DNA of 64,000 bases from an uncultured Pseudomonadota bacterium (lineage in GTDB: Bacteria > Pseudomonadota > Gammaproteobacteria > CAJXQU01). Shown in pieces: positions 1-63,623 of this stretch (positions are counted from its first letter, which is position 1; each line of letters begins with the position of its first letter). The DNA is taken from assembly GCA_913058255.1 (NCBI GenBank), contig CAJXQU010000001.1:502886-566885 (forward strand). The letters are read 5' to 3'. Both the position numbers and the translations under genes were made by a program. The notes beneath the pieces were generated by a model. The model made no database searches. It worked only from the letters and a program-made list of their open reading frames with translations, and was not told the DNA's origin.

Positions 1-804
1 ATATCTGTTCTCATCGTGAAAGCACCACAAGCGATAGATAGTCTGCAAGACACGATCTTACCTAAAATTGCTCAATTTGCTGGTTTTGAAACGCCGACTT
101 TAGACACGAGTGCATTCAAACGAGCGATTATGGGGAATTGGCAAAGTTTCGGTGGTGCTATGGGAAGTATTTTTGAAAAGCTGACCTCATCCGGCTTAAA
201 AATTATAAATTGGTTGGCTTTCTTGGTGTTGATCCCGGTTGTCACATTTTATCTATTACGTGACTGGGACATTATGATCGCGAAAATTCATGATCTATTA
301 CCACGCAGATTGGAATCTACCGTTAACCGTTTGGCTAAAGAGTGTGATGAAGTTTTAGCTGAATTCTTCAGAGGCCAGCTATCGGTCATGATAGCTCTCG
401 CGATTATTTATACCGTTGGTTTGATGATCGTTGGCCTTGACCTCGCATTTCTGATCGGCATGATCTCTGGCTTAGTCAGTTTCGTTCCTTACTTAGGCTT
501 TATAGTTGGAATAGTTATAGCCAGTATTGCAGCATTGATGCAGTTTCAGGATGGCATTCATTTAGTATATGTCGCGATCGTATTTGGTATCGGCCAAGCA
601 TTAGAAGGTATGGTTCTATCGCCGCTGTTAGTCGGCGATCGTATTGGTCTACATCCTGTTGCGGTCATCTTTGCAGTAATGGCTGGCGGTCAGCTTTTTG
701 GCTTTGTTGGTGTACTACTAGCGTTACCTGTTGCTGCGATTATTGTGGTGATTGTGCGACACTGGCATGAACTCTATAAAGAAAGTGATTTTTATACTCC
801 ATGA
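1..804 (+). CDS. AI-2E family transporter (PerM/YhhT-like permease), 5' partial; the frame is open to the window start
   Basis: Polytopic hydrophobic protein with the C-terminal pattern typical of AI-2E/PerM permeases. Frame 1 has no stop upstream of the GTG at 16, so the gene begins outside the window. Confidence 0.6.
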   Translation: MSVLIVKAPQAIDSLQDTILPKIAQFAGFETPTLDTSAFKRAIMGNWQSFGGAMGSIFEKLTSSGLKIINWLAFLVLIPVVTFYLLRDWDIMIAKIHDLLPRRLESTVNRLAKECDEVLAEFFRGQLSVMIALAIIYTVGLMIVGLDLAFLIGMISGLVSFVPYLGFIVGIVIASIAALMQFQDGIHLVYVAIVFGIGQALEGMVLSPLLVGDRIGLHPVAVIFAVMAGGQLFGFVGVLLALPVAAIIVVIVRHWHELYKESDFYTP

Positions 805-847
805 TCAAATCATAATTGAAAAAGCAAGGCATCTATCTTTATTGATG

Positions 848-1564
848 AATATACATTCAGGCATGCAGCTACCATTAGCATTTGGTCAGACGGAAGCATT
901 TTCTTTTGAACAGTTTTTAGCTGGGGGAAGTGTCGAAGCTGTTCAAAAACTTCAAGATATAAGCTTGCAAGAAGATCACGCTACAGCGGAGACGGTTTTT
1001 CTTTGGGGAGCGGAAGGTTCTGGCAAAAGTCATCTGCTACAAGCCTTGTGTAAAGCATTGTCAGACAACGGCAAGCAATCACTTTATTTACCGCTTTTAC
1101 AAGTGCAAAAATTTACCCCACAAATACTTGAAGGTTTGGAGTCACTCCCCGTCATTTGTTTAGATGACATTGATCACATTGCCGGAGACGAAATGTGGGA
1201 GCAGGCAATATTCCACCTTTTTAATCGTATCAAAGATGCTGGGAGTTTGCTGATTATGGCGGCTAATACAGCACCACAGTCGATACAGTTTACGCTAGCT
1301 GACCTTGCATCAAGAGTGAACTGGGGCCTTATCTATCAATTACATGATCTTGACGATACTGAAAAGCTGGCAGTGTTACAAAACAGGGCAAGCGATAGAA
1401 GCTTTGAGCTACCTGATGAAGTTGGTGAATACTTGATCAAAAGATTGCCTAGAGATATGCATGGACTATGTGATTTTCTAGACAAACTTGATGTTGCAAG
1501 CCTTGCTGCAAAAAGAAAACTTACTATCCCGTTCGTTCGTGATCTAATGGAAAATAATTTATGA
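848..1564 (+). CDS. hda: DnaA regulatory inactivator Hda
   Basis: Near-collinear with the E. coli Hda sequence as recalled from memory (QLPL clamp-binding motif, GxxGSGKSHLL Walker A, LASRLxWG, RKLTIPFV C-terminus). The start is moved to an internal Met (ORF track starts at 752). Confidence 0.8.
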   Translation, partial: NIHSGMQLPLAFGQTEAFSFEQFLAGGSVEAVQKLQDISLQEDHATAETVFLWGAEGSGKSHLLQALCKALSDNGKQSLYLPLLQVQKFTPQILEGLESLPVICLDDIDHIAGDEMWEQAIFHLFNRIKDAGSLLIMAANTAPQSIQFTLADLASRVNWGLIYQLHDLDDTEKLAVLQNRASDRSFELPDEVGEYLIKRLPRDMHGLCDFLDKLDVASLAAKRKLTIPFVRDLMENNL

Positions 1565-2847
1565 AAAACTTATGTCTAAGTTTATTTATCTGTCTGTCAT
1601 TACTTCTAGATAACGTAAGTGAAGCCAAAGAAACTCGAAGTGAAGTTGCTGAAACCTTATTTTCAAATTATAAAAATTCAGTTGTACAAGTACGAATAAT
1701 TGATAAAACATCGCAATCAAAAGCATCCATAGGATCAGGTTTTTTTGTAGCGGCTGATGATATGGAAGGCGGTTACATCGTGAGTAATTTTCATGTGGTT
1801 TCTGAATGGGTTTATAAACCAGAACGATATGAAATTAAGTACTTAATGAATGACAAACGAGAAGGTGATTTAACCCTAGTCGGAATTGATGTTGTTCATG
1901 ATTTATCTTTGCTAAAGATAGATCTTAAACCACAAAGAGAATTTGGTTTTTCAAACCGAAAATTAACTCAAGGTGAACGCCTCTATTCATTTGGCAACCC
2001 TCATGATATTGGTTTATCTATTGTTGAAGGGACTTATAATGGTTACATTGAAAAATCATTATATGAAAAAATCCATTATACAGGCTCAGTTAATCCTGGT
2101 ATGAGTGGAGGTCCAGTGGTTGATCGAAACGGGAGCCTGACGGGTGTGAATGTTTCCGGTGCAGGCAATCAATTAAGTTTTCTTGTGCCGAAAGAGTATG
2201 TCAATAAACTAATCCTCAATGGAAGGAAAAATGCTGAAACGGATTTAAAATTTCTAGATGTTATTCGAGATCAGTTATTAGCCAATCAGAAAGAATATAT
2301 GCAGTTTTTTTTAAATGAGCCGCTTAATGCAGTTACGATGAACTCATATTCATTACCCGGAGAACTAGGGGATTTTATGAAGTGTTGGGGTGGTACGAAG
2401 AAGCGCGAAAAAATGCTCTACGAACAGACCTATCAAGTTTGTCGAACGGAAGATGATATCTATCTTTCATCTGGGCAGCGCTCAGGAGTGATCGAATATA
2501 AACATGAGCTATTTAAGAATAAAGGACTCGGTAAAATGCGATTTTTTTCTTTGATGGAAGGTAAGTTTTCTCATCCAGGTTCTGCGGCATTTGCTGATGA
2601 AGAAATGGTCACGGAGTATGAGTGTAAGACCGGACAAGTTGAACATGAGCAGACTAAATCAAAACTTGTTTTTTGTTTGAGAGAGTATAAAAAGTTTAGC
2701 GGCGTTTATGATGCTTGGATGGGGGCGGTTATCTTGGCTGAAAATGATGAAGTGCTACAGACAAGCTTGATGTTGTCTGGAGTCAGTTACGAGAATGCTG
2801 TGAAGTTTTCACAAGCTTATATGAAAAAAATGAGCTGGATTAAGTAA
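1561..2847 (+). CDS. Secreted trypsin-like (S1) serine peptidase with a C-terminal ~200-aa Cys-containing extension
   Basis: N-terminal signal peptide. His (SNFHVV), Asp (DLSLLKI) and Ser (GMSGGPVV) catalytic motifs in chymotrypsin-fold order. ATGA overlap with the hda stop. Confidence 0.7.
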   Translation: MKNLCLSLFICLSLLLDNVSEAKETRSEVAETLFSNYKNSVVQVRIIDKTSQSKASIGSGFFVAADDMEGGYIVSNFHVVSEWVYKPERYEIKYLMNDKREGDLTLVGIDVVHDLSLLKIDLKPQREFGFSNRKLTQGERLYSFGNPHDIGLSIVEGTYNGYIEKSLYEKIHYTGSVNPGMSGGPVVDRNGSLTGVNVSGAGNQLSFLVPKEYVNKLILNGRKNAETDLKFLDVIRDQLLANQKEYMQFFLNEPLNAVTMNSYSLPGELGDFMKCWGGTKKREKMLYEQTYQVCRTEDDIYLSSGQRSGVIEYKHELFKNKGLGKMRFFSLMEGKFSHPGSAAFADEEMVTEYECKTGQVEHEQTKSKLVFCLREYKKFSGVYDAWMGAVILAENDEVLQTSLMLSGVSYENAVKFSQAYMKKMSWIK

Positions 2848-3810
2848 TGACTGAATCGATAGCAAGTTTTGGTGTTCTTGAGGTTCTAAGTCGCAGCGGA
2901 AAAGTTATACAGCGAGCTGAACTTGATCAAAATACTCTGAGTATTGGTCGTTCCTATGAAAATGATATTATTCTTGATGACCATTATGTTTGCCCAGAGC
3001 ACCTTTCAGTTATAAAAGAAGGTGATGGGCTTCTTGTTGAAGATCTCAACAGTGTGAATGGTTTATTTCAAAATAAGTTTCATATCAATGGTGATAGGTT
3101 AAAAGTATCGCCAAATGAGACCTTTCGAATAGGTCACACTACCTTACGTTATCGATTGAGCGACATGCCGATCACAGCAACAAAAGTTGATCGACATGCT
3201 CAGAACTCTTTTTGGTCTCTACAAAACCCATGGTTAATTTGTCTTATCACTTTGATCTTTATTGGATTCTCTGGGGTAGAAGCTTTTTTTGCCCAAATGG
3301 AAGAAACTGATAATTTAAAGCTCTTATCTGAATTACTTTCCGGTCTATTTGTTGTTTTAAGCTGGGCTGGCCTTTGGGCATTGTTTGGGAAACTGATCGT
3401 TGATCGTGCTTCTTTCTTAACTCACTTTGGGATTTTTTCACTAGCCAATATTTTATTTTCATTGATCTCAATTATTCTAGGTTATCTTTTCTATGCCTTT
3501 GGTTTTGATAGCGCACTTTCCACCGTTTCTATGTTGTTAACTGCGTGTGTTTCGATCTGGTTGCTTTATACCCATTTGGGTTACAGCACAAAAATGACGA
3601 GACGATCAATGCTGACTTTTTCGGCCGTATTAACATTTCTCGGGATAGGATTTTATTTCCTACAAATGCAGGTATTGCAGTCTGAGTTTAATTACATGCC
3701 AAGCTATGATGTGATTTTGAAATCACCTGACTTTAACTTTGTTTCTGGAGAATCCGTAGATAACTTTTTTACTGCTACGGATACTCTAAAAGAACAATTA
3801 CGAGAAGAAA

Positions 3811-3824
<14 letters not shown>
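2847..3824 (+). CDS. FHA-domain protein with C-terminal multi-pass membrane region
   Basis: The N-terminal ~100 aa match the FHA fold pattern (LSIGRSxxNDIILDDxxVCPEHLSV...NSVNGLF). The C-terminal half has 4-5 hydrophobic helices. The start overlaps the stop of the upstream protease. Confidence 0.6.
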
Positions 3825-4810
<986 letters not shown>

Positions 4811-5233: not shown

Positions 5234-6475
5234 ATGAATTTTGCTCCAGTGCAGATTATTTCAAAACTTAGTGAATTACGAGACTTTTTGATCTTTGTAA
5301 AAAAACATTTTACAGCCGATAACTGTGTTCGAACCGCAGCATCACTCTCCTACACGTCATTATTGTCGCTTGTACCTATGATGGCGGTCATGTTCTCGAC
5401 TTTAGCGGCTTTCCCTGTTTTCCAAGGTATCGAACATGATATTGAGGCTTTTATTTTTAATAACTTTGTTCCAGCATTAGGACAAACTGTTCAAACTTAT
5501 ATGCATGAGTTTAGTGAAAAAGCATCAGGTTTACGTGCGGTTGGGGTTTGTTTTCTATTCGTTACAGTGTTGGCGATGATGAATACCATTGAAGCGGCTT
5601 TTAATGCGATCTGGCGTGTACGCACAAAACGTAAACCAGCAACACGTTTCATGACATATTGGGCTATTTTAACACTAGGGCCGTTGTTGGTTGGAACAGG
5701 TTTTGTTGCGACATCTTATCTTGTGTCATTGCCTATCTTTAGCGAGGTTGATCAGACCTTAGGGCTTAAGCGTAAGTTCTTAATTTTATTTCCTTTTCTG
5801 ACGACTACACTTGCTTTTTTTGTCATTTATCGCTTGTTGCCGAATCGAGTAGTGTCGGCTAAAAGTGCCATTATTGGTGGGCTGGTGGCGGGCATTTTAT
5901 TTGAAATTGCAAAAAGATTGTTTGCTTATTACGTCGTTCATTTTCCTAGCCAGCAGGCAGTCTATGGCGCATTTGCAACGATTCCCATTTTCTTACTCTG
6001 GATTTACCTATCGTGGCTGGTCATCCTGTTCGGTGCTGAAATTACACGCTGCCATATGATTTATCATCGTTATGTGGGCAAGGTTAATGAAGGTAACCGA
6101 AATATGTTTGTAGATGCCTACCGGATTACAGGACAACTTTGGAAAGGACAGATCGCGAGTCAACCACGCACAGTATCCGATTTGCTCGTGCACGAACCAG
6201 ATATGAATGATGATCGCGTTTATGAAATATTACGTGCCTTGCGCGAAGCCGGTTGGGTACAACGTACTGAAGAGGGTGGCTGGATTTTGTTGCGAGATCT
6301 TAGTGATGAAACCTTGTTGAATTTATATCAAACATTGCCGGGAGGATTGCCGCTGTCAGGTCAAGAACTGATCAGAGAAGATGTGTGGAATCAGCGATTA
6401 TTCACGGAGCTTGGAAAAGCATTCGGAAGCTTGGAATTATCGATGAAAGCTTCGTTAAAATCACTCTACGAATAA
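5234..6475 (+). CDS. YihY/BrkB family inner-membrane protein (formerly called RNase BN) with a C-terminal soluble extension
   Basis: Six hydrophobic segments in the pattern of the YihY family (SLSYTSLLSLVP... start). The ~120-aa hydrophilic C-terminus resembles a winged-helix extension. Confidence 0.6.
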   Translation: MNFAPVQIISKLSELRDFLIFVKKHFTADNCVRTAASLSYTSLLSLVPMMAVMFSTLAAFPVFQGIEHDIEAFIFNNFVPALGQTVQTYMHEFSEKASGLRAVGVCFLFVTVLAMMNTIEAAFNAIWRVRTKRKPATRFMTYWAILTLGPLLVGTGFVATSYLVSLPIFSEVDQTLGLKRKFLILFPFLTTTLAFFVIYRLLPNRVVSAKSAIIGGLVAGILFEIAKRLFAYYVVHFPSQQAVYGAFATIPIFLLWIYLSWLVILFGAEITRCHMIYHRYVGKVNEGNRNMFVDAYRITGQLWKGQIASQPRTVSDLLVHEPDMNDDRVYEILRALREAGWVQRTEEGGWILLRDLSDETLLNLYQTLPGGLPLSGQELIREDVWNQRLFTELGKAFGSLELSMKASLKSLYE

Positions 6476-6698
6476 TAATCCGTTAGATAAAGTGATGTCC
6501 AAAAGCACATGGTTATATCCAAGTAAAAAGCTGGAATTGGAGTAACGGGGATGTGGGAATGAAGTACATTTTGTACAATGAAGAAGCTTCGGTGGATTGC
6601 CTAGCTCTACCTGTTTATGAATAGCAACTGAGTCCCGACAGCGATGGTTTGAGCTGCCGGGAGAGCTGAGGTTTAGATTGGTTGCGCGTAAAAAGGTT

Positions 6699-8408
6699 CT
6701 AGCCAAGTAACTTTTGAGTGATAAATGATCTCGCTTCAGCAGCATCAATATCGGTGCTTTCCGAATCTCGGCGGCCTTTATATTCCATTTGACCCGCATC
6801 TAATCCACGATCACTGAGCACTAAACGGTGAGGAATTCCGATCAACTCCAGATCGTTAAACATCACTCCTGGGCGCTCTTTTTTGTCGCAGAGTAGAACG
6901 TCAAAACCTGCTTGCATAAACTCAGTATAGAGCTGCTCTGCCGTTTCTTTGACCCGATCCGATTTATGTGCGTTGACGGGAACGATGGCAAGTTGGAAAG
7001 GTGCAATGGCATCAGGCCAGATAATGCCTGACTCGTCGTAGTTTTGTTCAATAGCGGAGGCCACGACACGAGAAACTCCAATGCCGTAACAGCCCATGAT
7101 CATATCGATCGCTTTTCCATTTTCGTCCAGACAGTTGGCTTTCATGCTTTTGCTGTACTTATCTCCTAGTTGAAAGATATGTCCAACTTCAATTCCTTTC
7201 GCGATCTGAATCGTCCCTTCACCATCTGGGCTGGCTTCGCCTTCTTCGATATTGCGAATATCTGCAACGATGGGTTCTGCCAGATCACGCTCCCAATTAA
7301 CGCCTGTTAAATGTTTACCATCTTCATTTGCACCACATGCAAAATCAGCGACTACGGCAGCAGAGTGATCAACCACGACAGGAATTTCAAGCCCGACAGG
7401 TCCAATGGAGCCAACAGAGCAACCAAGTGCTTGTTTGATTTTTTCAGCATCGGCAAAGCTGAAAGGTGATGAAACCTGTTCAATCTTTTCAGCTTTTATG
7501 GGATTCAACACATGGTCACCACGGATCACCAACGCGACCAGCGAATCATCTTCGCCTTCAACGATCAGTGTTTTGAGACATTGCTTAGACTCAATGGCTA
7601 AGTGTTTGCAGACTTCTTCAATGCTGTGCTGTCCGGGTGTGTCAACAGTACTCATCTCTTGAGCGGCTGTTGGACGTGGTTGATCGGGCAATGGAGCAGG
7701 GGTTAGTTCGACGTTAGATGCGTACTCACTTTCGGTACTGAAGGCGATATCATCTTCACCGGATTCAGCTAACACATGAAACTCATGAGAGGCGCTGCCA
7801 CCAATGTTACCGGTATCGGCTTCGACAGCACGGAATTTTAGACCTAGGCGAGAAAAAATACGCGAATAGGCGGCGAACATCACATCATAGGTGGCTTGTA
7901 ATGACTCCTGATCAAGGTGAAAAGAGTAGGCATCTTTCATCAAAAATTCACGTGAGCGCATGATACCGAAACGTGGACGGATCTCATCACGAAATTTAGT
8001 TTGAATTTGATAAAAGTTTGCTGGTAGCTGTTTATAGCTTCTGATCTCATTTCTGACTAAAGAAGTGATCACTTCCTCCGCCGTAGGGCCGTAGCAAAAC
8101 TCTCTATTATGTCGGTCAGAGATTCTAAGTAGCTCCGGACCATATTGCTCCCATCGACCAGACTCTTCCCATAAACCAGCGGGCTGCACAGAAGGCATCA
8201 ACAGTTCCTGAGCACCGGCGAGATCCATCTCTTCGCGAACGATCTTTTCTACTTTACGCAAAACTTTTAGGCCTAGTGGCAGCCATGAGTAAATGCCTGA
8301 GGCGGTTTGTCGGATCATTCCGGCACGTAACATAAGTTGATGACTGATGACTTCGGCATCAGCAGGAGCATCTCTAAGGGTTGGTAGTAAAAGGTTTGAT
8401 AATCGCAT
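6699..8408 (-). CDS. proS: Proline--tRNA ligase
   Basis: 569 aa, bacterial-type ProRS with insertion (editing) domain. Class II motifs and the conserved MRLSxxLLPTLRD N-terminus. Confidence 0.9.
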
Positions 8409-49623: not shown

Positions 49624-49994
49624 GAGAGTTGGCCAGGCAGTCGCTGTATGCAAATACAGAGGAAAGTCCGGGCTCCATAGGGCAGGGTGCTAGATAACGT
49701 CTAGGGGGCGAAAGCCTACGGAAAGTGCCACAGAAAACAGACCGCCACTCGGCTTCGGCCGAAGGTAAGGGTGAAAAGGTGCGGTAAGAGCGCACCGCGC
49801 TAGTGAAAGCTAGTGGCAGGGTAAACCCCACCTGGAGCAAGACCAAATAGGGGAATGCGCCGCTTCGAGCGGTATCGTGTGGTCCGCATGAGTTCCCGGG
49901 TAGGTTGCTAGAGGTGTTACGGCGACGTACATCCCAGATGAATGACTGTCACACCATATGGTGTACAGAACCCGGCTTATCGGCCAACTCTTTT
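49624..49994 (+). ncRNA. rnpB: RNase P RNA (bacterial type A)
   Basis: Matches the E. coli M1 RNA as recalled from memory: AGGAAAGUCCGGGCUCCAUAGGGCAGGGUGC, GGAAAGUGCCACAGAAAA, GGUAAGGGUGAAAAGGUGCGGUAAGAGCGCACC, ACAGAACCCGGCUUAUCGGCCAACUC. P1 closes by pairing AGUUGGCC with GGCCAACU. Confidence 0.95.
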
Positions 49995-50015
49995 TCAACT
50001 TCATAATGGTTAGTT

Positions 50016-52532: not shown

Positions 52533-52543
52533 ATCCTACAAGT

Positions 52544-52567
52544 GGTGGGGAGTTGTGGATCATTGTG
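52544..52567 (+). promoter_or_regulatory. MraZ operator-like direct repeats GTGGG-N-GTGGA-N-GTGGA at ~10-bp spacing
   Basis: GTGGGgagttGTGGAtcattGTGGA lies immediately downstream of the putative -10. This mirrors the E. coli arrangement of TGGGN repeats bound by MraZ. Confidence 0.5.
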
Positions 52568-52616
52568 GATCAATAGCAACTTCAAAATGAAATTAACAAG
52601 GTGTTTTGAGAGTCTC

Positions 52617-53075
52617 ATGTTTAGCGGTAAAAGCTCATTAAATTTGGACAGTAAAGGACGATTGGCAATACCCAGTCGGTATCGTGCTCGTCTGGAGGAA
52701 ATGAGTGAAAGTGACGTGGTGGTGACGATCAATCCTTTAGACCGATGCGTTTGGATATACCCACGAACAGAATGGGAAATTATCGAAGCAAAATTACGCC
52801 AGCTATCTGATTTTGATAAGCAGAGCCGTCGTACCAAACAGATGATGTTGGGGTATGCCGAAGATTTCCATTTGGATTCCCACGGACGAATTCGAATTCC
52901 TTCTAGCTTGAAAGAATATGCTGGATTAGAGAAAGAAGCGGTCATGTTAGGACAGGGTAACAAATTTGAACTCTGGGATGAATCGGCTTGGAACACACAA
53001 CATGATGAATGGTTGGCCAGCCTTGAAGATACGTCTGGTGAGCCTTCAGAACCATTACAACAGTTATCGCTTTGA
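52617..53075 (+). CDS. mraZ: Division/cell-wall cluster transcriptional regulator MraZ
   Basis: 152 aa from the internal Met (MFSGKSxLxLDSKGRLAIP), matching E. coli MraZ length and N-terminus. The ORF-track extension covers the promoter. Confidence 0.85.
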   Translation: MFSGKSSLNLDSKGRLAIPSRYRARLEEMSESDVVVTINPLDRCVWIYPRTEWEIIEAKLRQLSDFDKQSRRTKQMMLGYAEDFHLDSHGRIRIPSSLKEYAGLEKEAVMLGQGNKFELWDESAWNTQHDEWLASLEDTSGEPSEPLQQLSL

Positions 53076-54031
53076 TGGAAAATTTAAACGGTGAACAGCA
53101 ACACAAACCGGTTTTATTAACGGAAGTGTTGGAAGCCTTATCGATAGTCGATGATGGCATCTACATAGATTGCACTTTTGGCCGGGGAGGTCATGCAAGA
53201 GCGATATTGGAGCAATTAGGACAAGCAGGGAGGGTTATCGCGATTGATCGTGATCCTGAAGCTATTCTAGCTGGTAAGGCACTTGAGGCCGAAGATAGTC
53301 GTTTCACTATCGAACAGGGCGCGTTTTCAGTATTGAAAGATGTGGCTGAACGACAAGATGTGAGCGGCAAGGTGAACGGTATTTTGTTTGATCTTGGAGT
53401 GTCGTCTCCGCAACTGGATGATGCAGAGCGTGGGTTTAGTTTTATGCACGAAGGTCCTCTTGATATGCGTATGGATCCTAGTCATGCGATCTCCGCGGCA
53501 GAATGGATTGCTAGAACTTCTGAGCGAGACATGGTTCAAGTGTTTAGTGAATACGGTGAAGCGCCATTTTCTAAGCGAATCGCAAAGGCAATTGTTGAGG
53601 CGCGACATGAGACACCGTTTGAAACAACAAAGCAGTTGGCTGATCTGATCAGTGCTGTTTCACCGAAACAAGGTAAACCGGGGCAGAAGGTGATTCATCC
53701 GGCAACACGCGTTTTTCAAGCTATAAGAATTTGCGTTAATGATGAGTTGGGCGAAGTGAAAAAGGTACTTGAGCAAGTCACTAATGTGCTTGGGCCAAAA
53801 GGTCGCTTAGCCGTGATCAGTTTTCATTCACTAGAAGATCGTTTGATCAAACGTTTTATAAAAAAAGCGGCTGTAGGAGATAATTTTCCTGCGGGCCTAC
53901 CTATTCCAACATCAATGTTGAATCCAACACTTAAAATGGTTGGAAAGCTGATCAAGGCCGGTAAGGAAGAATTACAACACAACCCTCGTTCACGTAGTGC
54001 AGTGTTACGAGTCGCTGAGAAGATGGCTTAA
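53072..54031 (+). CDS. rsmH: 16S rRNA (cytosine1402-N4)-methyltransferase RsmH
   Basis: HKPVLLxEVL, DxTFGRGGHA, FDLGVSSPQLD motifs. Confidence 0.9.
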   Translation: MMENLNGEQQHKPVLLTEVLEALSIVDDGIYIDCTFGRGGHARAILEQLGQAGRVIAIDRDPEAILAGKALEAEDSRFTIEQGAFSVLKDVAERQDVSGKVNGILFDLGVSSPQLDDAERGFSFMHEGPLDMRMDPSHAISAAEWIARTSERDMVQVFSEYGEAPFSKRIAKAIVEARHETPFETTKQLADLISAVSPKQGKPGQKVIHPATRVFQAIRICVNDELGEVKKVLEQVTNVLGPKGRLAVISFHSLEDRLIKRFIKKAAVGDNFPAGLPIPTSMLNPTLKMVGKLIKAGKEELQHNPRSRSAVLRVAEKMA

Positions 54032-54294
54032 TGAGGCTTTCTATCGTTCTTTTTTTGGCTGTAATGATTGTTTGGTCAGCGTTGAGCGTGGTCAAAACAC
54101 GGCATGAAAGTCGTAAATTATTTATCGCATTGCAGGAAATGGAAAACCAACGGGATGCGATGAATGAAAACTGGGGTCGTTTGCAATTAGAGCAAGCTAC
54201 TTGGGGAACACATAGCCGAATCGAAGAATTTGCACGTGACAAATTGGAAATGGAATTACCTATTACAGAAGATATTAACTTGGTGAATTTTTGA
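54031..54294 (+). CDS. ftsL: Cell division protein FtsL
   Basis: 87-aa bitopic protein (TM then coiled coil) between rsmH and ftsI. Confidence 0.75.
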   Translation: MRLSIVLFLAVMIVWSALSVVKTRHESRKLFIALQEMENQRDAMNENWGRLQLEQATWGTHSRIEEFARDKLEMELPITEDINLVNF

Positions 54295-56009
54295 TGTCAG
54301 AGTCTGACTCTAAATTGAATACTGACTTTTCCGGAAGACGCCGGTTTATCTTATGTCTATTTACGATCGCTGCATGTGGGTTGGTATTTCGTGTCGTGCA
54401 ATTACAACTTGTAGATAAGGATTTTTTACAAGCAAAGGGCAATGCTCGTTATTTACGCACGGTTGCAATTCCTGCACACCGTGGAGTAATTCAAGATCGT
54501 AACGGTGAGCCTTTAGCAATTAGTACACCTATCAGCGCGATCGCTTGTAATCCAAAGAAGTTGATTCTAGAAAAATCACGTTGGGCTGAGTTAGCAAAAA
54601 TGTTGGATATATCTGAAGCTAAATTAGCGGAAGAAATAAAAAAGCGTGCCAGTCGTGAATTTATGTATTTGAAGCGACAAGTGACGCCAATGCTTGCAGA
54701 AGAGATTCGTGCATTGAACATTTCAGGCGTATTTACGAAAAAAGAATACCGTCGTTTTTATCCTGCTGCTGACGTTGCTGCACATGTTGTCGGTTTTACA
54801 AACATCGATGATAAAGGTCAGGAAGGTATGGAGCTGGCATTTAACCAAATGCTTAAAGGTGAGTCAGGTGCAAAAAAAGTAATTCGAGATCTTGCTGGTC
54901 ATACGATTGAAAATGTAGAAAGTGTAAAAACAGCCGTACCGGGTAATAACCTGACATTAAGTATTGATAAAAGGATTCAATATTTAGCCTATCGCGAATT
55001 AACGGCAGCGGTGTTAGGTCATAAAGCAAAGAGTGGATCGATTGTTGTGATGGATGCGAATTCCGGTGAAATTCTTGCGATGGTGAATCAGCCTTCATAT
55101 AACCCAAATAATCGATATGAATTAAAAGGCGAACATTATAGAAACCGTGCCGTGACGGATGTATTTGAACCGGGTTCAACAATGAAGCCTTTTACTGTAG
55201 CAACAGGTTTAGAAAATGGAACATATAAGCCAAGCACGCAGATAGATACACGTCCGGGACATTATAAGGTCGGTCCAGATACGGTTCGAGATATTCATAA
55301 CTATGGCTTAATCGACGTGTCTACGGTGATCAAAAAGTCCAGTAATGTTGGTGTTTCAAAGATTGCGCTATCAATGGAGCCTGAAGTTCTTTGGGGAACA
55401 TTTAATAAAATTGGTTTAGGAACAACCAGCGGTATTGGTTTTCCTGGAGAGGTTTCTGGACGTCTTAGAGATTACTCAAATTGGCGGAGTATTGAACAAG
55501 CAACCATGTCATTTGGTTATGGAATGTCAGTAACAACGTTGCAGCTTGCACAGGCTTATACCGTGTTGGCAAATGAAGGCGTTATGGCTACGCCTAGCTT
55601 ACTAAAGGTTGAAGAGCCAGAAGAAACTGTTCGTGTTATGAGCAAGAAAACGGCTGAACAAGTTTTGCTAATGATGGAAGGTGTCGTTCAGGATGGAACA
55701 GGAAAACAGGCTCAAATTTTAGGTTATCGCGTGGCTGGTAAAACAGGAACAGCGCATAAATCTTCGGTTGGAGGTTATGCCGAAGATCGATATCAGTCTG
55801 TATTTGCAGGTGTTGTTCCTGTTAGCAATCCAAGATTAGTTGCAGTGGTTATGATCAACGAGCCATCACAGGGCGAATACTATGGTGGCCAAGTTGCAGC
55901 ACCTGCATTTGCAAGGTTGATGGGTGAGACTTTACGTTTAATGAATATATCGCCTGATGATATTTCGTCATTAAAAGAAAAACGATTAGTGGCAGGGAAG
56001 GATCTTTGA
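54291..56009 (+). CDS. ftsI: Peptidoglycan D,D-transpeptidase FtsI (PBP3)
   Basis: STMK active-site serine motif, SSN and KTGT boxes. 572 aa. Confidence 0.9.
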   Translation: MMSESDSKLNTDFSGRRRFILCLFTIAACGLVFRVVQLQLVDKDFLQAKGNARYLRTVAIPAHRGVIQDRNGEPLAISTPISAIACNPKKLILEKSRWAELAKMLDISEAKLAEEIKKRASREFMYLKRQVTPMLAEEIRALNISGVFTKKEYRRFYPAADVAAHVVGFTNIDDKGQEGMELAFNQMLKGESGAKKVIRDLAGHTIENVESVKTAVPGNNLTLSIDKRIQYLAYRELTAAVLGHKAKSGSIVVMDANSGEILAMVNQPSYNPNNRYELKGEHYRNRAVTDVFEPGSTMKPFTVATGLENGTYKPSTQIDTRPGHYKVGPDTVRDIHNYGLIDVSTVIKKSSNVGVSKIALSMEPEVLWGTFNKIGLGTTSGIGFPGEVSGRLRDYSNWRSIEQATMSFGYGMSVTTLQLAQAYTVLANEGVMATPSLLKVEEPEETVRVMSKKTAEQVLLMMEGVVQDGTGKQAQILGYRVAGKTGTAHKSSVGGYAEDRYQSVFAGVVPVSNPRLVAVVMINEPSQGEYYGGQVAAPAFARLMGETLRLMNISPDDISSLKEKRLVAGKDL

Positions 56010-57550
56010 TTATGACAGCAATGAATCATCGTGGTGTCTACCTGAGTGAGCTCTTGAAGGATTTTGCTGCTGTTGAAGCAGAGCAAAATATGCAGATCTC
56101 AGGGATAGAAATGGATAGTAGAAATGTCCATCAAGGTGATTGTTTTATTGCTGTTAATGGAGAGCATGCTAACGGAATAGACTTTATACCTGATGCAATT
56201 TGCAAAGGTGCAGCCGCAGTCCTAGTTGATACAAATGATGCCGAATTAATCAGAAAGTATTTAGAAACTGAAACTAGCCCTTGGAACATAATCTTTGTAG
56301 ACCAGCTAGATGTAAAAGCGGGACAAATTGTTCACCGTTATTATGGACAACCAACAGAGTTTATGAAAATGATTGGTGTTACGGGCACAAATGCTAAGAC
56401 ATCGGTCAGTTATTTTATTGGTCAAGCTATTGATAATATTTCAGGTAGTGGCACCTGCGGAGTAATAGGAACATTAGGTAATGGTCTGCTTGGTGAATTC
56501 ATTTCAAGTGGAATGACAACGCCGGATACTATTTGTTTACATCAATCGCTATCGAGGCTACGTGATCGAGGTGCTCATGCTACCGTCGTTGAAGCATCAT
56601 CACACGGCTTGGCTCAGCATCGATTAAGTGGTGTTGAATTTGATGTCGCAGTGTTCACCAACCTAACGCAAGATCATCTTGATTATCATGGTGATATGAC
56701 AAGCTATGGTGCTGCGAAATTAGAGTTATTTAAATCTCCCGATCTACAAGCTGCGGTGGTCAATTTAGACGATCCTTTTTCAGAGAAAGTCATCGATCTT
56801 TTGCGTGAAAGAGAAGATGAAGTGAAGATCACGGGCTATACACTGGGTAAACAACAGTATTCGGGGATCAGGACAATTCGTTGTAGCAAGTTAAAGGTGT
56901 CTGCGAATGGTTTATCGATGGACATAGATACGCCGGAAGGATCAAACATACTAAAGACTAGTCTGTTAGGTCGGTTCAATGCGAGCAATTTATTAGCTGC
57001 TCTGGGTGCCTTGATGGCCTGTGGTTTTCGTTTGAATGATGCCTTACAAGCACTTGCTGAAGTACAAGGAGTGCCAGGTCGAATGGAAGCTTTCGTACAA
57101 AAAAATCAGGCCGCAGTCATTGTTGATTTTGCCCACACTCCAGATAGCCTAAGTAAGACATTAGAAACATTAAAAGAGATTTGTAAAGGCAAGTTGTGGT
57201 GTGTGTTTGGTTGTGGTGGAGATAGAGATAAAAGTAAACGTGCGCTCATGGGCGCCGCAGCCGAGTTGCATGCAGATCAAGTTATTATTACAGATGATAA
57301 TCCTCGATCAGAAGAACCGAGCATCATTGCAAGTCGCATTCTTTCTGGTATGAAAAAACCTGTCAATGCAAAGGTGATTTTAGATCGGAAGGTCGCTATT
57401 GAAACAGCGATTAGAGAAGCTGCACCTAAAGATATTATTCTAGTTGCCGGAAAGGGTCATGAAGATTGGCAGGAAATTAAAGGACAGAAATTTTCTTTTA
57501 ATGACCGTAATGTTGTTTTGAATCTAATCGGCAAAGGAAGTGAAAAATGA
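56006..57550 (+). CDS. murE: UDP-N-acetylmuramoyl-L-alanyl-D-glutamate--2,6-diaminopimelate ligase
   Basis: Mur ligase with GVTGTNxKTS P-loop and DNPR motif. Confidence 0.9.
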   Translation: MIMTAMNHRGVYLSELLKDFAAVEAEQNMQISGIEMDSRNVHQGDCFIAVNGEHANGIDFIPDAICKGAAAVLVDTNDAELIRKYLETETSPWNIIFVDQLDVKAGQIVHRYYGQPTEFMKMIGVTGTNAKTSVSYFIGQAIDNISGSGTCGVIGTLGNGLLGEFISSGMTTPDTICLHQSLSRLRDRGAHATVVEASSHGLAQHRLSGVEFDVAVFTNLTQDHLDYHGDMTSYGAAKLELFKSPDLQAAVVNLDDPFSEKVIDLLREREDEVKITGYTLGKQQYSGIRTIRCSKLKVSANGLSMDIDTPEGSNILKTSLLGRFNASNLLAALGALMACGFRLNDALQALAEVQGVPGRMEAFVQKNQAAVIVDFAHTPDSLSKTLETLKEICKGKLWCVFGCGGDRDKSKRALMGAAAELHADQVIITDDNPRSEEPSIIASRILSGMKKPVNAKVILDRKVAIETAIREAAPKDIILVAGKGHEDWQEIKGQKFSFNDRNVVLNLIGKGSEK

Positions 57551-58920
57551 TCAGCTTTTCATTGCAACATATAGCCGATCAGCTAGATGCAAAGTTAATA
57601 GGTCAAGACGTAATCTTTGAAGGTTGTTCTACAGACACAAGAAGCATTAAAAAAGGTGAGTTATTTGTTGCTTTGAGTGGCCCTAGTTTTGATGGTCATG
57701 ATTATATTTCGATGGCCGAAAAATTAGGTGCTATAGCCGTTGTAGTCGATCGAGATGTCACTACAAAACTACCAGTGATAAAAGTACAAGATACGCATCT
57801 AGCATTATCTGAAGTAGCAAGACTATGGCGAGAAGAATTTTCAATGCCCGTAATTGCGATTACTGGCAGTAACGGTAAAACAACCGTTAAAGAAATGATT
57901 AGTTCTATCTTGTCTCGTTGTGGAAATATTCTGGCAACAAAAGGCAATTTAAATAACGAAATAGGTGTACCACAAACCTTATTTAATCTTGAACAAAAAC
58001 ATAACTATGCCGTGATTGAAATGGGTGCAAATCATGGTGGAGAGATCACGAGCCTTTGTGAGATAGCGCAACCAAAAGTGGCCGTTGTTACACAGTGCGC
58101 ACCATCGCACCTTGAAGGCTTTGGTTCGATAGAAGGTGTTGCAAAAGCTAAAGGTGAAATTTTTGAATTTTTAGCAAAAGATGCAGAAGAAAATATTGCT
58201 GTAATAAATGCTGATGATGACTATGCGTCACTTTGGAAGAAACTTGCAGGGAACAGCAGAATTATAAGTTTTGGTTTAGATGCTAAGGATGTAGATGTTA
58301 GTGCTTCAGTTATCGAAATGAATACAAAGGAAAGCCGAATCTTATTACAAGCAGAAGGACAAACAATGAAACTTAGGCTGCCTTTAGCGGGTAAGCATAA
58401 TGTTTTGAATGCGCTTGCAGCCACAGCATGTGCGTTAGCTTTAAATGTATCAATGGAAGTTATTCGTGATGGTTTACAAGTGGTTAAATCAGTACCTGGT
58501 AGATTGCAGTTTAAAGTCGGAATAAAAAACCTACAGATTATCGATGACACATATAATGCAAATCCTCGTTCATACGCAGCAGCACTAGACGTATTGAGTC
58601 AGTCAAAGGGCCAGCATTGGTTAGCGTTAGGTGACATGGGAGAGCTTGGAGATACGGCTGAAAAATTACATACAGAAGCAGGTGAGCAAGCACGTATATC
58701 TGGCGTTGAAAGAATGTTCACATTAGGGGAATTGAGTCAAAAAGCGACAGAGTCATTTGGTGCTGGAGCACAACATTTCACGGATCAGAAACAACTAATA
58801 AAAATAATAAAAAATGAGTTGGATAAGGACATCACGCTCTTAATAAAAGGTTCTCGCTTTACCCATATGGAAAGGGTTGTGCAGGCACTGGAGAGTAATA
58901 ATGCTTCTACTTCTTGCTGA
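57547..58920 (+). CDS. murF: UDP-N-acetylmuramoyl-tripeptide--D-alanyl-D-alanine ligase
   Basis: Mur ligase with [10 protein letters not shown]-loop. Position after murE. Confidence 0.9.
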
Positions 58921-59983
58921 CTATTTAACTCAGTACCACACTGGATTCGGGGTTTTTCAATACCTAACGTTGAGAACAATATTGGGTGTATTAACCGCAT
59001 TGTTTATATCGCTGGCTGTTGGCCCATGTATGATCAGATATCTTAAGCGTTATCAGCTTGGCCAGAGTGTGCGTTCTGATGGCCCAGAAACTCATTTAGT
59101 GAAGGCTGGAACACCAACAATGGGTGGTTTATTAATCCTTGTAGCGGTTGGTGTTAGCACTCTCTTATGGGGCGATTTAAACAACCGATTTATTTGGGTT
59201 GTGTTACTCGTGACAGCATTATTTGGTGTTGTCGGGTGGATCGATGATTACAAAAAAATAGTTGAAAAAGATCCAAGAGGATTGATTGCAAGATATAAAT
59301 ATTTAGGACAGTCAATTGTTGGGATTATTGCTGCGATTTTTTTATATACAACAGCGGTTACAACCGCAGAAACAGAGTTACTGATCCCCTTCTTTAAAAA
59401 TGCCAGTATTACACTGGGCATTTTTTATATTCCTTTTGCATATTTTGTTATTGTTGGAACAAGTAATGCGGTGAACTTGACCGACGGTTTAGATGGATTG
59501 GCAATCATGCCATGTGTGTTGGTCGCAGGGGCATTTATTATCTTTGCTTATGTTACAGGTAATGTGAATTTCTCTGATTATTTAGGATTTCCATACATTG
59601 CTGGAACGGGTGAACTTTGCATTTTTTGCGGTTCGATCGTAGGGGCCGGATTAGGTTTTCTATGGTTCAACACATATCCAGCACAAGTTTTCATGGGTGA
59701 TATTGGAGCCTTAGCTTTAGGCGCTGCACTAGGAACAGTTGCCGTTATGGTTCGACAAGAATTAGTGCTGTTTATTATGGGAGGCATCTTTGTAATAGAA
59801 ACCGTGTCAGTGATTTTGCAGGTTGCATCATTCAAATTGACAGGAAAAAGAATTTTTAACATGGCTCCATTACATCATCATTACGAACTTAAAGGATGGC
59901 CAGAACCAAGAGTTATTGTGCGGTTTTGGATTATTACCGTCATGTTAGTTTTACTTGGTTTAGCAACCTTAAAAATACGATAG
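58901..59983 (+). CDS. mraY: Phospho-N-acetylmuramoyl-pentapeptide transferase
   Basis: Collinear with the E. coli MraY sequence as recalled from memory (MLxxLAxxL…FxYLTx[12 protein letters not shown]). Start moved to the internal Met (ORF track begins at 58877). Confidence 0.9.
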
Positions 59984-60010
59984 GAATAAGTAGTGACAGA
60001 AAAATCGCGT

Positions 60011-61372
60011 ATGAATAAACAGCACAACTTAAATGTTGACACTGTGATCGTCGGTCTCGGCGTGACAGGTTTATCATGCGCGCGTTTTCTTGGTAGCAGA
60101 GGTTTATCTTTTGCTGTGACTGATACCCGGGAAACGCCTCCAGGCTTAGTAGAACTAATGGAAGAGTTTCCTAATACGGTTATTAGTACCAGTGAATTAG
60201 ATTTAGATCTGATCATGAGTGCTAAACAATGTTTAGTAAGCCCTGGAATTTCTATAAAGACTCCGGCTTTGATTGATGCGGAGCAGGCTGGGGTTGAAAT
60301 CATTGGGGATATCGAACTCTTTGCTCGCCATGCCGATGCTCCTGTGGTTTCTATTACGGGTGCAAATGGAAAGAGCACGGTGACAACACTCGTGTATGAG
60401 ATGGCGAAAGCAGCGGGTTTAGATGTTAGGGCAGGTGGTAATTTAGGTCTACCTGCTCTTGACTTGATCGATGATATTGAGCCTGACCTTTATATTCTAG
60501 AACTGTCTAGTTTTCAGTTGGAAACAACACATAATTTAAACTCTTTAGCAGCGACAGTCTTAAATATTTCTGAAGATCATATGGACCGATATGCTGGTAT
60601 AGCAGACTATGCTGGAGCTAAGGAAAGAGTTTATCAAGGTAGTGGCGCGATGATCATCAACTCAGACGATCCTGCTGTTGGTCGGATGACCAATGTTAAT
60701 CGTGAGATCATACGTTTTACGCTAAACGAACCGATGGAAAGTGAGTTCGGTATTCTGCACAAAGACAATGAAGCTTGGTTGGCATTTGGTGATCAATATT
60801 TAATATCGATCAGCGAAATGAAAATACAAGGACTGCATAATATTTCGAATGCACTTGCTGCATTAGCGTTAGGAAGAGCTGCTGGAATAGCTGATGAACC
60901 TATGCTTGACGTATTACGTACATGGCCAGGCTTATCTCATCGATGTGAATGGATTGCTGAGCATAATGGTGTGGATTGGTACAACGATTCAAAAGGGACT
61001 AATGAAGGTGCAACGGTTGCTGCTATAAATGGTTTTGCTGATAGACCTATTATTTTGATTGCGGGCGGAGATGGTAAAGGTGCGAAGTTCAATGATCTTG
61101 CTACGGCTGCGAAAGGGGCAGTAAAACAAGCAATACTGTTTGGAAAAGACGCTCCTTTATTAGAAAATAAACTACAAGCAGTGACCGAAATTATACGAGT
61201 CAAAGATCTTGCTGAAGCCGTTAAAGTTGCAGGTAAAATAGCAGTGAAAGGTGACAGGGTCTTATTGTCGCCAGCTTGTGCAAGTTTGGATATGTTTAAA
61301 AATTATATTGTTCGCGCTGAAGAGTTTATTAAGGCTGTTAATGAATTCGTAAATCAGGGGGTAGAGATATGA
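60011..61372 (+). CDS. murD: UDP-N-acetylmuramoylalanine--D-glutamate ligase
   Basis: VIVGLGxTGLSC Rossmann start, ITGxNGKSTVT P-loop, SPACASLDxFKN C-terminus. An alternative GTG start lies at 59993. Confidence 0.9.
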   Translation: MNKQHNLNVDTVIVGLGVTGLSCARFLGSRGLSFAVTDTRETPPGLVELMEEFPNTVISTSELDLDLIMSAKQCLVSPGISIKTPALIDAEQAGVEIIGDIELFARHADAPVVSITGANGKSTVTTLVYEMAKAAGLDVRAGGNLGLPALDLIDDIEPDLYILELSSFQLETTHNLNSLAATVLNISEDHMDRYAGIADYAGAKERVYQGSGAMIINSDDPAVGRMTNVNREIIRFTLNEPMESEFGILHKDNEAWLAFGDQYLISISEMKIQGLHNISNALAALALGRAAGIADEPMLDVLRTWPGLSHRCEWIAEHNGVDWYNDSKGTNEGATVAAINGFADRPIILIAGGDGKGAKFNDLATAAKGAVKQAILFGKDAPLLENKLQAVTEIIRVKDLAEAVKVAGKIAVKGDRVLLSPACASLDMFKNYIVRAEEFIKAVNEFVNQGVEI

Positions 61373-62565
61373 GCCAAGCTATCCCAATGAAAGAAAACCA
61401 AAGTAATATGTTTGGTCGAACACTTTATAAAAATGATGAGAAATATGATTGGTGGTTGATCTGTTGTGTAATGATTCTGATCAGTCTTGGCTTGGTTATG
61501 GTTGCCTCAGCATCGATTTCAATAGCGGATCCATTAGGCAAAGAAGATGGTGTGAAATTATATTATTTCTGGCGTCAGGTCGTTGCGTTATCTATCGGGT
61601 TTACAGGCGGTATAGTCGCTCTAAAGACACCACTATATTTGCTTAAGGAATTTCGTTATTTGTTTCTGTTTATTTCTTTTGTATTGCTAGTGGCAGTTAT
61701 TTCTCCATTGGGTAAAGAAGTTAATGGTGCATCACGTTGGGTCGATTTAGGCGTATATGATTTACAAGCTTCGGAAATCACTAAATTACTGCTTATTATC
61801 TATTTAGCCGGTTACATGGAAAAACATTTAGAGTCCGTTAGAACGTCATTTTCTGGGCTCTATAATCCTATTATTGTAATGATACTTATTTGTTTTCTGT
61901 TATTGATGGAACCAGATTTTGGAACGTCAGTTTTATTATTTTCAAGCATGTTGGGAATGCTCTTTATTGCCGGTGTTCCGTTATTAAGAATAATTGTCTG
62001 GGGAAGCGTCGCGGTGATGCTCCTTGCATCTGCGGCATTAATGTCTCCTTATCGTTTACAACGTTTGCTCACTTACGTGGACCCCTGGGCGGATCCTTTC
62101 GGTGCAGGCTTTCAATTGATCCAAGCGTTAATCGCAATAGGCCGAGGCGAATGGTTTGGTGTTGGTTTAGGAAGCAGTGTTCAAAAATTATTTTACCTAC
62201 CAGAAGCTCACACTGATTTTATTTTTTCTGTGTTTGCTGAAGAACTAGGCTTGTTCGGTTGCTTAAGTTTGATTGCTGTTTTTTCTTTCTTTATATGGCG
62301 AGTGTTTTACATTGCAGTTCAAGCGGAAAGAGAAGGCCGATATTTCCCAGCTTTTCTAGCCTACGGATTTGGGTTATTGATCGGTATGCAGGCATTCCTA
62401 AACATGGGTGTGAATATGGGCGTGCTGCCTACGAAGGGGTTAACACTACCGTTTATTAGTTATGGTGGTAACAGCATGATCATGATGTGTATAGCGACAG
62501 CATTAATCTTACGCGTTGATCATGAAACTCGTATGGGGAACAATTATGAGGGCGACGAAGAATGA
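61369..62565 (+). CDS. ftsW: Peptidoglycan glycosyltransferase FtsW (SEDS family)
   Basis: 10-TM SEDS protein with the conserved PEAHTDFIFS region. Confidence 0.9.
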   Translation: MSQAIPMKENQSNMFGRTLYKNDEKYDWWLICCVMILISLGLVMVASASISIADPLGKEDGVKLYYFWRQVVALSIGFTGGIVALKTPLYLLKEFRYLFLFISFVLLVAVISPLGKEVNGASRWVDLGVYDLQASEITKLLLIIYLAGYMEKHLESVRTSFSGLYNPIIVMILICFLLLMEPDFGTSVLLFSSMLGMLFIAGVPLLRIIVWGSVAVMLLASAALMSPYRLQRLLTYVDPWADPFGAGFQLIQALIAIGRGEWFGVGLGSSVQKLFYLPEAHTDFIFSVFAEELGLFGCLSLIAVFSFFIWRVFYIAVQAEREGRYFPAFLAYGFGLLIGMQAFLNMGVNMGVLPTKGLTLPFISYGGNSMIMMCIATALILRVDHETRMGNNYEGDEE

Positions 62566-63623
62566 CTCGTCCGATCATGATCATGGCTGGCGGAACAGGA
62601 GGACATGTTTTTCCTGCATTAGCCGTTGCTGATTATTTAAAAGCAAAAGAAATTCCTGTGTTGTGGTTAGGTACAGAGAAAGGCTTGGAAGCGAGAGTTG
62701 TACCTGAAGCTGGATACCAACTTTTAACGCTAAGTATCGCTGGTATTCGAGGTAAGAGTGGGATAACAATTCTTCTAGCACCATTCAGAATTTTATTTGC
62801 CGTCATACAAGCACTAAAAGTGGTGGTCACACATCGACCAGCTGCAGTGTTGGGCATGGGTGGATTTGCAAGTGGCCCAGGAGGGATCGCTGCGTGGTTA
62901 ATGCGTACACCTGTGATAATTCATGAGCAAAATGCAATAGCAGGGATGACTAATAAATGGCTTTCAAGAATAGCTACACGAGTCTTTGAAGCATTTCCTG
63001 GAGCATTTCCAACGAATATAACTGCGGAACATGTAGGTAATCCCGTTCGTGCTGCGATAGAAAATATACAAAAGAAAAATAAAGAAAATAAAACACTTAG
63101 AGTTTTGATCGTTGGCGGAAGCCTCGGTGCAATGACTTTGAATAAGGTTGTGCCTGCAAGCTTGGCGAAAGTTTCAGGAAAAATAGAAATATGGCATCAA
63201 ACTGGTCAGCGTGATTTTGAAGCGACGCAAGAAGAGTATATAGCGCTAGGAATTGATGCAAAAGTGGAATCATTTCTTAATGATATGGATCAAGCCTATG
63301 CATGGGCTGATCTCGTTATTTGCCGATCGGGAGCATTAACCGTATCAGAATTAGCCGCTGCAGGTTTACCCGCTATTTTAGTGCCATACCCCTATGCTGT
63401 TGATGATCATCAAACAGCGAATGGAGAATATTTAGCCAGTGCGGACGCTGCTGTGATTATTAATGATAAAGATTTTTCGGAAGAAAAATTGATCACAATA
63501 ATAAATGAGTGGATAGCAAAGCCAGAACGATTAAAAGAAATGTCCGTTAAGGCGAAGGGAAAAGCCATAAAAGGTGCAACCAAAAATGTAGCGAATGCAT
63601 TAATGGAGGTGGCTTATGGATAG
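62562..63623 (+). CDS. murG: Undecaprenyl-PP-MurNAc-pentapeptide-UDP-GlcNAc GlcNAc transferase
   Basis: [16 protein letters not shown] start, GT28 family. 353 aa. Confidence 0.9.

Follow-up and report, generated by a model that had tools for sequence, protein, structure and literature searches.

Near the beginning of a 64,000-nucleotide stretch of DNA from an uncultured Pseudomonadota bacterium (Gammaproteobacteria; contig CAJXQU010000001.1 of assembly GCA_913058255.1, positions 502,886 to 566,885 of the forward strand; hereafter, the window), four co-directional genes lie on the plus strand, as read from the list of open reading frames (ORFs) and from the sequence: the 3′ part of perM, hda, a gene for a trypsin-like protease, and a gene for a membrane protein with an FHA domain (hereafter, the partner). 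We analysed the last two together with their surroundings, and found that the conserved, selected unit at this locus is the pair of protease and FHA-membrane genes, not hda together with that pair. The features of the pair, in window positions, are the following.

1561..2847, plus strand: protease gene, 428 amino acids (ORF)
1561..1626, plus strand: putative Sec-type signal peptide, residues 1-22, with a hydrophobic N-terminus and, in homologues, Ala at position -1; the putative cleavage falls between VSEA and KE
1648..2232, plus strand: S1C/HtrA-like protease domain (Trypsin_2, E=3.8e-21, residues 58-196)
1792-1794, 1900-1902 and 2104-2106, plus strand: protease triad H78, D114 and S182, respectively, invariant in the alignment
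2233..2844, plus strand: C-terminal domain of the protease, residues 225-428, modelled as a PsbP/Mog1/DcrB-like alpha-beta sandwich with four invariant Cys
2845..2849, plus strand: protease/FHA junction TAATG (aagTAATGact), where the TAA stop of the protease overlaps the ATG of the FHA-membrane gene
2847..3824, plus strand: FHA-membrane gene, 325 amino acids (ORF)
2871..3158, plus strand: FHA domain, predicted cytoplasmic, residues 9-104 (Pfam FHA at residues 32-96; FHA beta-sandwich fold)
3180..3191, plus strand: linker motif T112-K-V-D115 ([T/A]-x-x-D), after the FHA domain and ahead of helix 1
3228..3686, plus strand: predicted five-helix bundle, residues 128-149, 156-185, 190-218, 221-247 and 252-280
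3687..3821, plus strand: C-terminal tail, residues 281-325, predicted periplasmic (five helices, N-terminus inside)

A preliminary description of this DNA, made from its letters and ORFs, had proposed a signal-peptide S1 protease with an uncharacterised, Cys-containing C-terminal half. This held: the Trypsin_2 match covers the N-terminal half, and no Pfam family matched residues ~200-428, nor did Pfam return a PDZ domain anywhere in the protease. A profile of the protease family, compared with the PDB, retrieved HtrA1 of Mycobacterium tuberculosis, human HTRA1 and HTRA2, DegP, DegQ, DegS and AlgW with E values down to 3e-22; these HtrA matches span profile positions 28-225 only. Every HtrA cut-off of NCBIfam was missed by far, the best score being 74.4 bits against a cut-off of 416.2. 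More than 120 homologues of the protease align over at least 91% of its length (40-100% identity), and H78, D114 and S182, as well as C275, C294, C355 and C372, are unchanged across the 24 homologues of our alignment. Because the triad is invariant, the protease is predicted to be active, presumably as an exported S1C-type enzyme. Our statements on structure rest on AlphaFold2 (AF2) models. The C-terminal half of the protease models as a protein- or ligand-binding fold that would occupy the place of the PDZ domain of HtrA proteases; its structural matches to the PsbP/Mog1/DcrB/LpqN/PknH-sensor fold have less than 10% identity and come without membership of those sequence families. Pairs of these cysteines sit on adjacent strands, an arrangement that fits two putative periplasmic disulfides.

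The partner had been described as joining an FHA domain to a polytopic membrane module, and both parts were borne out: the FHA domain scores 38.2 bits in Pfam (cut-off 20.7), the best NCBIfam match of the protein is FhaB_Rv0019c (E=2e-14), and five helices are predicted behind the domain in an AF2 model (60 sequences, pLDDT 90.1, pTM 0.74). Taken with the matches of Hda given below, all three proteins whose motifs had been proposed earlier (Hda, the protease and the FHA protein) score against family models. The preliminary description had also left undecided whether the FHA domain faces the cytoplasm or the periplasm; the AF2 model and charge counts place it in the cytoplasm. Across 218 family members, the loops between helices 2 and 3 and between helices 4 and 5 hold 2.1 and 2.7 Lys plus Arg, respectively, versus 0.16 and 0.07 Asp plus Glu, and the 1-2 and 3-4 loops are acidic or neutral. 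By the positive-inside rule, and with five helices, the FHA domain would thus be cytoplasmic and the C-terminal tail periplasmic. Two tryptophans of the bundle (W173, W177) are invariant and two histidines (H193, H243) nearly so, all predicted towards the cytoplasmic side in helices 2, 3 and 4.

The tail, the only sizeable periplasmic part of the partner, is modelled as an extended stretch (residues 281-303) followed by an amphipathic helix (304-324). Its conserved positions are F281, Y287, L291-K292-P293 and F307; F281 is kept in 173 of the 218 sequences, K292 in 188, P293 in 161 and F307 in 198. No Pfam family matched the bundle and tail, and the bundle had no PDB fold match among the top 60. 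When a profile of bundle plus tail was run against 1.84 billion cluster representatives, 1,908 proteins (50%-identity clusters) were found at E<=1e-3. None of the best 150 of these 1,908 exceeds 385 amino acids, and the module in them begins around residue 105-150. An FHA domain was present in all 80 module proteins that were scanned, and no other domain was common to more than one of them; with the short lengths, this means that, in the profile search, the module of bundle plus tail was seen only in this FHA architecture.

At least 530 loci with a gene related to that of the protease emerged from a scan of one genome per species. We surveyed the best 80 of them, with pairing called by ORF calling and iterative searches with hidden Markov models. 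The FHA-membrane gene lies directly downstream of the protease gene, on the same strand, in 79 of the 80; in the exception, the contig ends inside the protease gene. By record titles, the loci belong to Gammaproteobacteria, Beta-/Burkholderiales, Desulfuromonadales, Deferrisomatales, Gemmatimonadota, Binatia, Terriglobales and Myxococcales, and the protease tree groups them largely by these taxa. In 76 of the 80, the protease stop has an in-frame start codon no more than 16 nt away (modal overlaps of 4, 13 and 16 nt), a count biased to short distances because the closest start was chosen each time. When flanking ORFs were clustered all against all, no third gene was common to more than 17 of 82 loci, synteny being visible only at the level of clades; the two largest extra flanking clusters proved to be antisense shadow ORFs. 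The contexts include a GGDEF gene divergent upstream; DAHP synthase upstream and a HAD hydrolase downstream; and genes for an extracytoplasmic function (ECF) sigma factor, a PDZ protein and a beta-lactamase-like protein upstream with pdxJ downstream. At several loci the pair stands alone: the gene upstream of it is divergent, and a few hundred bases lie between them. Since the pair is kept in 79 of 80 while the genes around it change, the pair itself is the unusual conserved thing.

More than 120 homologues, at least 530 loci and 1,908 clusters together indicate that the genes are real. All 80 best genomes (L005 to L084) are metagenome-assembled, with no cultured isolate among them, which may explain why the pair is unstudied. 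A full-text literature search returned no description of an obligate pair of a PDZ-less HtrA-like protease and a five-helix FHA membrane protein. A Ferrigenium preprint that mentions FHA was set aside, since the mention refers to a cytochrome. Two loci deserve a separate remark. At L075 (6233-7244, a metagenome-assembled Lysobacterales genome), the FHA-membrane gene appears as two overlapping ORFs, 6233-6466 and 6441-7244, as a result of a frameshift, a pseudogene or an assembly error. At L086, on an 8.7-Mb contig, a small FHA-only protein of 159 amino acids (303-782, minus strand) is encoded beside a FecR-like gene, ~5 kb upstream of the pair.

We then turn to the ligand pocket of the FHA domain. 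Residues G34, R35, H52 and N71 are invariant, and G72 is present in 59 of 60; the canonical Ser of S-x-x-H is Cys49 in the window (2991-2993). In the linker of the 218 family members, residue 112 is Thr in 105 and Ala in 99, and D115 is found in 157; we take [T/A]112-x-x-D115, speculatively, to have the form of an FHA ligand of the pT-x-x-D type. Asp49 is paired with Ala112 in 42 of 45 cases (relatedness uncontrolled). Since residues 49 and 112 change often (36 and 40 parsimony steps, respectively) and kinship was not controlled for, this covariation is a lead only, not evidence.

In agreement with the preliminary description, neither a Ser/Thr kinase nor a PP2C phosphatase was found in the 64-kb window by jackhmmer seeded with the kinases and phosphatases of related loci and by a motif scan, searches of limited sensitivity. 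Such genes do stand near the pair in another clade, likewise monophyletic, whose 17 loci come from Thioalkalispiraceae, Ectothiorhodospiraceae, Thiohalomonadales and other groups; there the pair lies between rdgB and hemW. The gene order there is yicC on the opposite strand, then Pkinase-PP2C-rph-rdgB-protease-FHA-hemW, tightly packed and co-directional, the kinase being soluble. The kinase is present in 12 of the 17 loci and PP2C in 13, two to three genes upstream of the pair, and Ser49 is found in every one of the 13 loci that have either gene. An example of this run is L085 4760-11430; L027, L033, L040, L043, L045 and other gammaproteobacterial loci also have it. Reading of phosphothreonine by the partner is plausible in some lineages, to judge from the pocket, and uncertain in the window.

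The pair in the window is preceded by hda, and the preliminary description had made much of this arrangement. The remaining features of the locus are the following.

16..804, plus strand: 3′ part of perM, AI-2E family transporter (Pfam AI-2E_transport, E=6.5e-44)
845..1564, plus strand: hda, DnaA regulatory inactivator, likely start ATG 845 or 866 (TIGR03420, Hda_lid, Bac_DnaA)
1561..1564, plus strand: hda/protease junction ATGA (tttATGAaaa), where the TGA stop of hda overlaps the ATG of the protease gene
3811..4197, minus strand: DUF2069 membrane protein gene, convergent (ORF list and Pfam)

Hda scores 276.4 bits against TIGR03420 (cut-off 194.8), matches Hda_lid (E=4e-27) and Bac_DnaA, and in the NCBIfam/TIGR scan does not depart from its family model. 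The longest ORF of hda begins at TTG 752, within perM, and ATG 845 or 866 is the likelier start. From ATG 866 the protein begins MQLPLAF, in which QLPLAF resembles what we take to be the clamp-binding motif of Hda (QL[SD]LPL-like).

Both stop/start overlaps reported earlier, ATGA at hda/protease and TAATG at protease/FHA, are real in the sequence. In a weak consensus scan of the plus strand, the last promoter-like site is at position 464 and the last terminator-like site at 695; both lie within perM, so that no such site, and hence no internal promoter or terminator that would uncouple the pair from hda, was seen from the start of hda to the end of the FHA-membrane gene at 3824. The scan is compatible with a single perM-hda-protease-FHA transcript, as the gene spacing suggests. 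The FHA-membrane gene meets the convergent DUF2069 gene, which points to the end of the transcription unit there; the same weak scan detected no terminator-like hairpin at the overlap of the two genes. Their 3′ ends share 14 bp (window 3811-3824). The run DUF2069-wrbA-arsC is also found downstream of the pair in L001.

The survey showed how general the position behind hda is. The pair proved to be conserved; it does not always follow hda, which is upstream of the protease gene in only 4 of the 80 genomes (L005-L008). In these loci perM-hda precedes the pair, as it does in L001 and L002, which were obtained separately from the 80 and both repeat the sequence of L008. A neighbour-joining tree built from the proteases places the window and the loci with hda in one clade (5 of 5 after removal of duplicates). 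The 4-nt overlap between hda and the protease gene is kept in 4 of these 5, as ATGA in the window, L001 and L005 and as GTGA in L007; in L006 there is a 5-nt gap. A single insertion at the end of the perM-hda operon best accounts for the linkage, and the position of hda ahead of the pair is most likely a lineage-specific gene placement in one small lineage. Within it, co-expression of the pair with hda is plausible, and in the lineage of the window the pair is probably read from the perM-hda transcript via coupled translation. This concerns expression, and so gives no evidence of a function shared with Hda. Our full-text search found no paper on an hda-protease operon.

Elsewhere in the window, the sole Rfam match is a bacterial class A RNase P RNA (49625-49995, plus strand, 330.9 bits), nothing being returned near the protease/FHA locus. 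Positions 52542-63999 hold an apparent standard division and cell-wall cluster, mraZ-rsmH-ftsL-ftsI-murE-murF-mraY-murD-ftsW-murG-murC (named from N-terminal sequences and ORF order), and ilv/leu, mla, his and pet genes are apparently present too (named from N-terminal sequences). The GC content of the window is 41.5%.

The above results indicate that the pair is an autonomous module, widespread and uncharacterised, which combines familiar and well-studied domains (HtrA-type protease and FHA) with two unclassified ones, namely the membrane module and the C-terminal domain of the protease, for which there is no Pfam family. Among uncultured bacteria it is common in Proteobacteria, Desulfuromonadota, Gemmatimonadota and further phyla. 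We consider it probable that the protease and the FHA-membrane protein are functional partners and, with somewhat less assurance, we favour the reading that the two genes encode two subunits of one envelope-spanning protease module, in which the tail docks and gates the protease. The HtrA-type protease, its PDZ domain replaced by a disulfide-stabilised PsbP/DcrB-like binding domain, is predicted in the periplasm, and the partner in the inner membrane, with the FHA domain towards the cytoplasm, five helices, and a tail of ~45 residues towards the periplasm. Since the two products are on opposite sides of the membrane save for the tail, it is there that the protease would most obviously make contact. 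The tail would dock and gate the protease, probably via the PsbP-like domain, and the protease would then act at the inner membrane, on its outer side. Through the helix bundle, activity or retention of the protease may be coupled to the cytoplasmic ligand of the FHA domain. In lineages with the canonical pocket and an adjacent kinase and PP2C, this ligand would most likely be phosphothreonine, possibly that of the protein's own linker Thr112. In the window, with Cys in place of the pocket Ser and no nearby kinase detected, the ligand may be something other than phosphothreonine. That the partner serves specifically as an anchor or regulator of the protease under cytoplasmic control is a narrower form of the partnership, and one that we consider less likely than not. 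If the complex forms, it would be a new route linking cytoplasmic signalling (phosphorylation in some lineages) to periplasmic proteolysis.

Several points weigh against this reading. The survey took in the 80 loci most similar to the window protein (36-73% identity) among the at least 530, and the gene calls at the loci are longest-ORF calls. Residue 49 of the FHA domain is Ser in 43, Cys in 29, Asp in 6 and Ala in 2 (81 loci); as the pocket Ser is not conserved, reading of phosphothreonine cannot be a universal mechanism. The linkage to kinase and PP2C genes is limited to one clade, and could be plain synteny. The contact between protease and tail is a proposed one, and the direction of signalling, and whether the tail serves as dock or as substrate, are a guess.

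The signal might also run from the outside in, as in DegS/RseA-style proteolysis: the protease would sense an envelope signal by its PsbP-like domain and cut the tail of the partner, which would then be its substrate, altering what the FHA domain holds or releases. The HtrA/DegS-like protease domain, the extended and conserved tail, and the strict linkage of the two genes would all suit such a scheme. The partner, however, is polytopic, with five helices in which Trp residues are invariant and His residues nearly so; it is no single-pass tether of the sort that site-2 proteases can release. Nor does a substrate that is consumed need 1:1 coupled translation with its protease. Moreover, clustering of flanking ORFs and inspection of loci showed no sigma-factor or site-2 protease (RseP-like) gene recurring beside the pair across the clades examined; at one locus (L087), an ECF-type sigma gene lies ~3 kb upstream. 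We regard this scheme as unlikely. Slightly less likely still is a hitherto unrecognised kind of trans-envelope switch, in which the FHA domain reads a phosphothreonine in the T112-x-x-D of its own linker, or another cytoplasmic cue, and toggles the PDZ-less protease through bundle and tail, with the coupling to hda in the lineage of the window tying the dosage of the module to a replication-control operon; if it were true, the cytoplasm would directly control periplasmic proteolysis. It is also conceivable, and in our view improbable, that the two proteins are independent, a general periplasmic quality-control protease whose gene happens to stand beside that of an FHA membrane protein unrelated to it. 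The interaction is a proposed one and neither domain type is rare, but across several phyla the two genes stay adjacent, stop overlapping start, while all flanking genes change, and the membrane module is seen only in the FHA architecture.

A functional tie to Hda, by which, for example, the state of the envelope would act on DnaA inactivation and thus on replication initiation, is what the preliminary description had hinted at in pairing a replication-initiation regulator with an envelope module. The 4-nt overlap in 4 of 5 clade loci, together with the absence of internal promoter- or terminator-like sites in the weak scan, speaks for it. However, hda is upstream in those four genomes only, in a single clade with the window; the pair is packed as tightly behind rdgB in another clade and stands behind unrelated genes elsewhere; and Hda is cytoplasmic, the protease periplasmic, while Hda itself shows no difference from its family model. 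Since the linkage arose once and the pair is equally embedded behind unrelated genes, we judge the tie very improbable; the claim of a functional link is unsupported, and the link to replication was rejected. The position behind hda is a tempting over-reading, and does not indicate a replication function. Least probable of all, to the point that we give it hardly any weight, is an anti-phage or conflict system made of a trypsin-like effector and an FHA regulator. Trypsin-like and FHA domains do occur in published conflict systems (PMC7159879), and PADLOC gave domain-level matches of the protease to RT-Protease_XI and LmuA. These matches, however, are limited to the generic protease domain, and the FHA protein had none; the protease is predicted to be exported, its tree largely follows taxonomy, and the genes lie in housekeeping contexts rather than in defence islands, all of which makes defence unlikely. 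A known anti-phage system, in the sense of a full-length PADLOC match, was likewise rejected.

Among known systems, the protease is closest to HtrA, DegP, DegS and AlgW (MEROPS S1C), with which it shares an exported chymotrypsin-fold domain with a His-Asp-Ser triad and which are its best sequence matches in the PDB. Unlike them, it lacks PDZ domains and has instead a PsbP/Mog1/DcrB-like half with four invariant Cys, scores below all curated cut-offs, and is encoded by a gene obligatorily paired with a membrane protein gene. Its C-terminal domain models like the extracytoplasmic binding domains of the PsbP/Mog1/DcrB/LpqN/PknH-sensor fold; we know of no reported fusion of a PsbP-type fold to an S1C protease. 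MarP (Rv3671c) of M. tuberculosis resembles the pair in having an S1 protease at the outer face of the cytoplasmic membrane together with a polytopic membrane part. In MarP, the helices and the protease form one polypeptide, without an FHA domain; here, in contrast, they are two gene products, the protease having a signal peptide only, and the match of the protease to the MarP model (NF033740) is weak and at domain level, 42.8 bits (E=3.5e-11) with a cut-off of 250. The DegS-RseA pair is similar in that a periplasmic HtrA-type protease acts on the periplasmic side of a protein of the inner membrane, which at its opposite end binds a partner in the cytoplasm. RseA is a single-pass protein that binds sigma-E, needs RseP, and is not encoded beside degS, whereas the partner here has five helices and an FHA domain.

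Type III secretion proteins of the YscD/PrgH kind, which have an FHA-like cytoplasmic domain, a single helix and periplasmic ring-building domains, and are encoded in a type III secretion cluster, were considered and rejected: the match to Pfam Yop-YscD_cpl (45.2 bits) covers the FHA fold only, and the partner, with its five helices, ends in a short tail. In the ORF list, which was read by eye and not scanned against models, no genes for secretion were noticed near the locus. The best structural matches of the FHA domain are CT664, FhaA, EmbR, GarA, DgcB and the FHA-1 domain of Rv1747, none of which is known to be coupled to a protease. The partner is most like those systems, regulated by Ser/Thr kinases, in which a cytoplasmic FHA domain sits at a membrane machine, such as FhaA-MviN, FhaB/FipA Rv0019c and the ABC exporter Rv1747 in M. 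tuberculosis, and DgcB in Bdellovibrio. The T-x-x-D of the linker recalls the self-phosphopeptide ligands of Rv1747 and DgcB. The partner differs from these membrane FHA proteins in that its module of five helices plus tail is unrelated to theirs, that the pocket Ser is often Cys or Asp, and that the protein it is paired with is a periplasmic protease.

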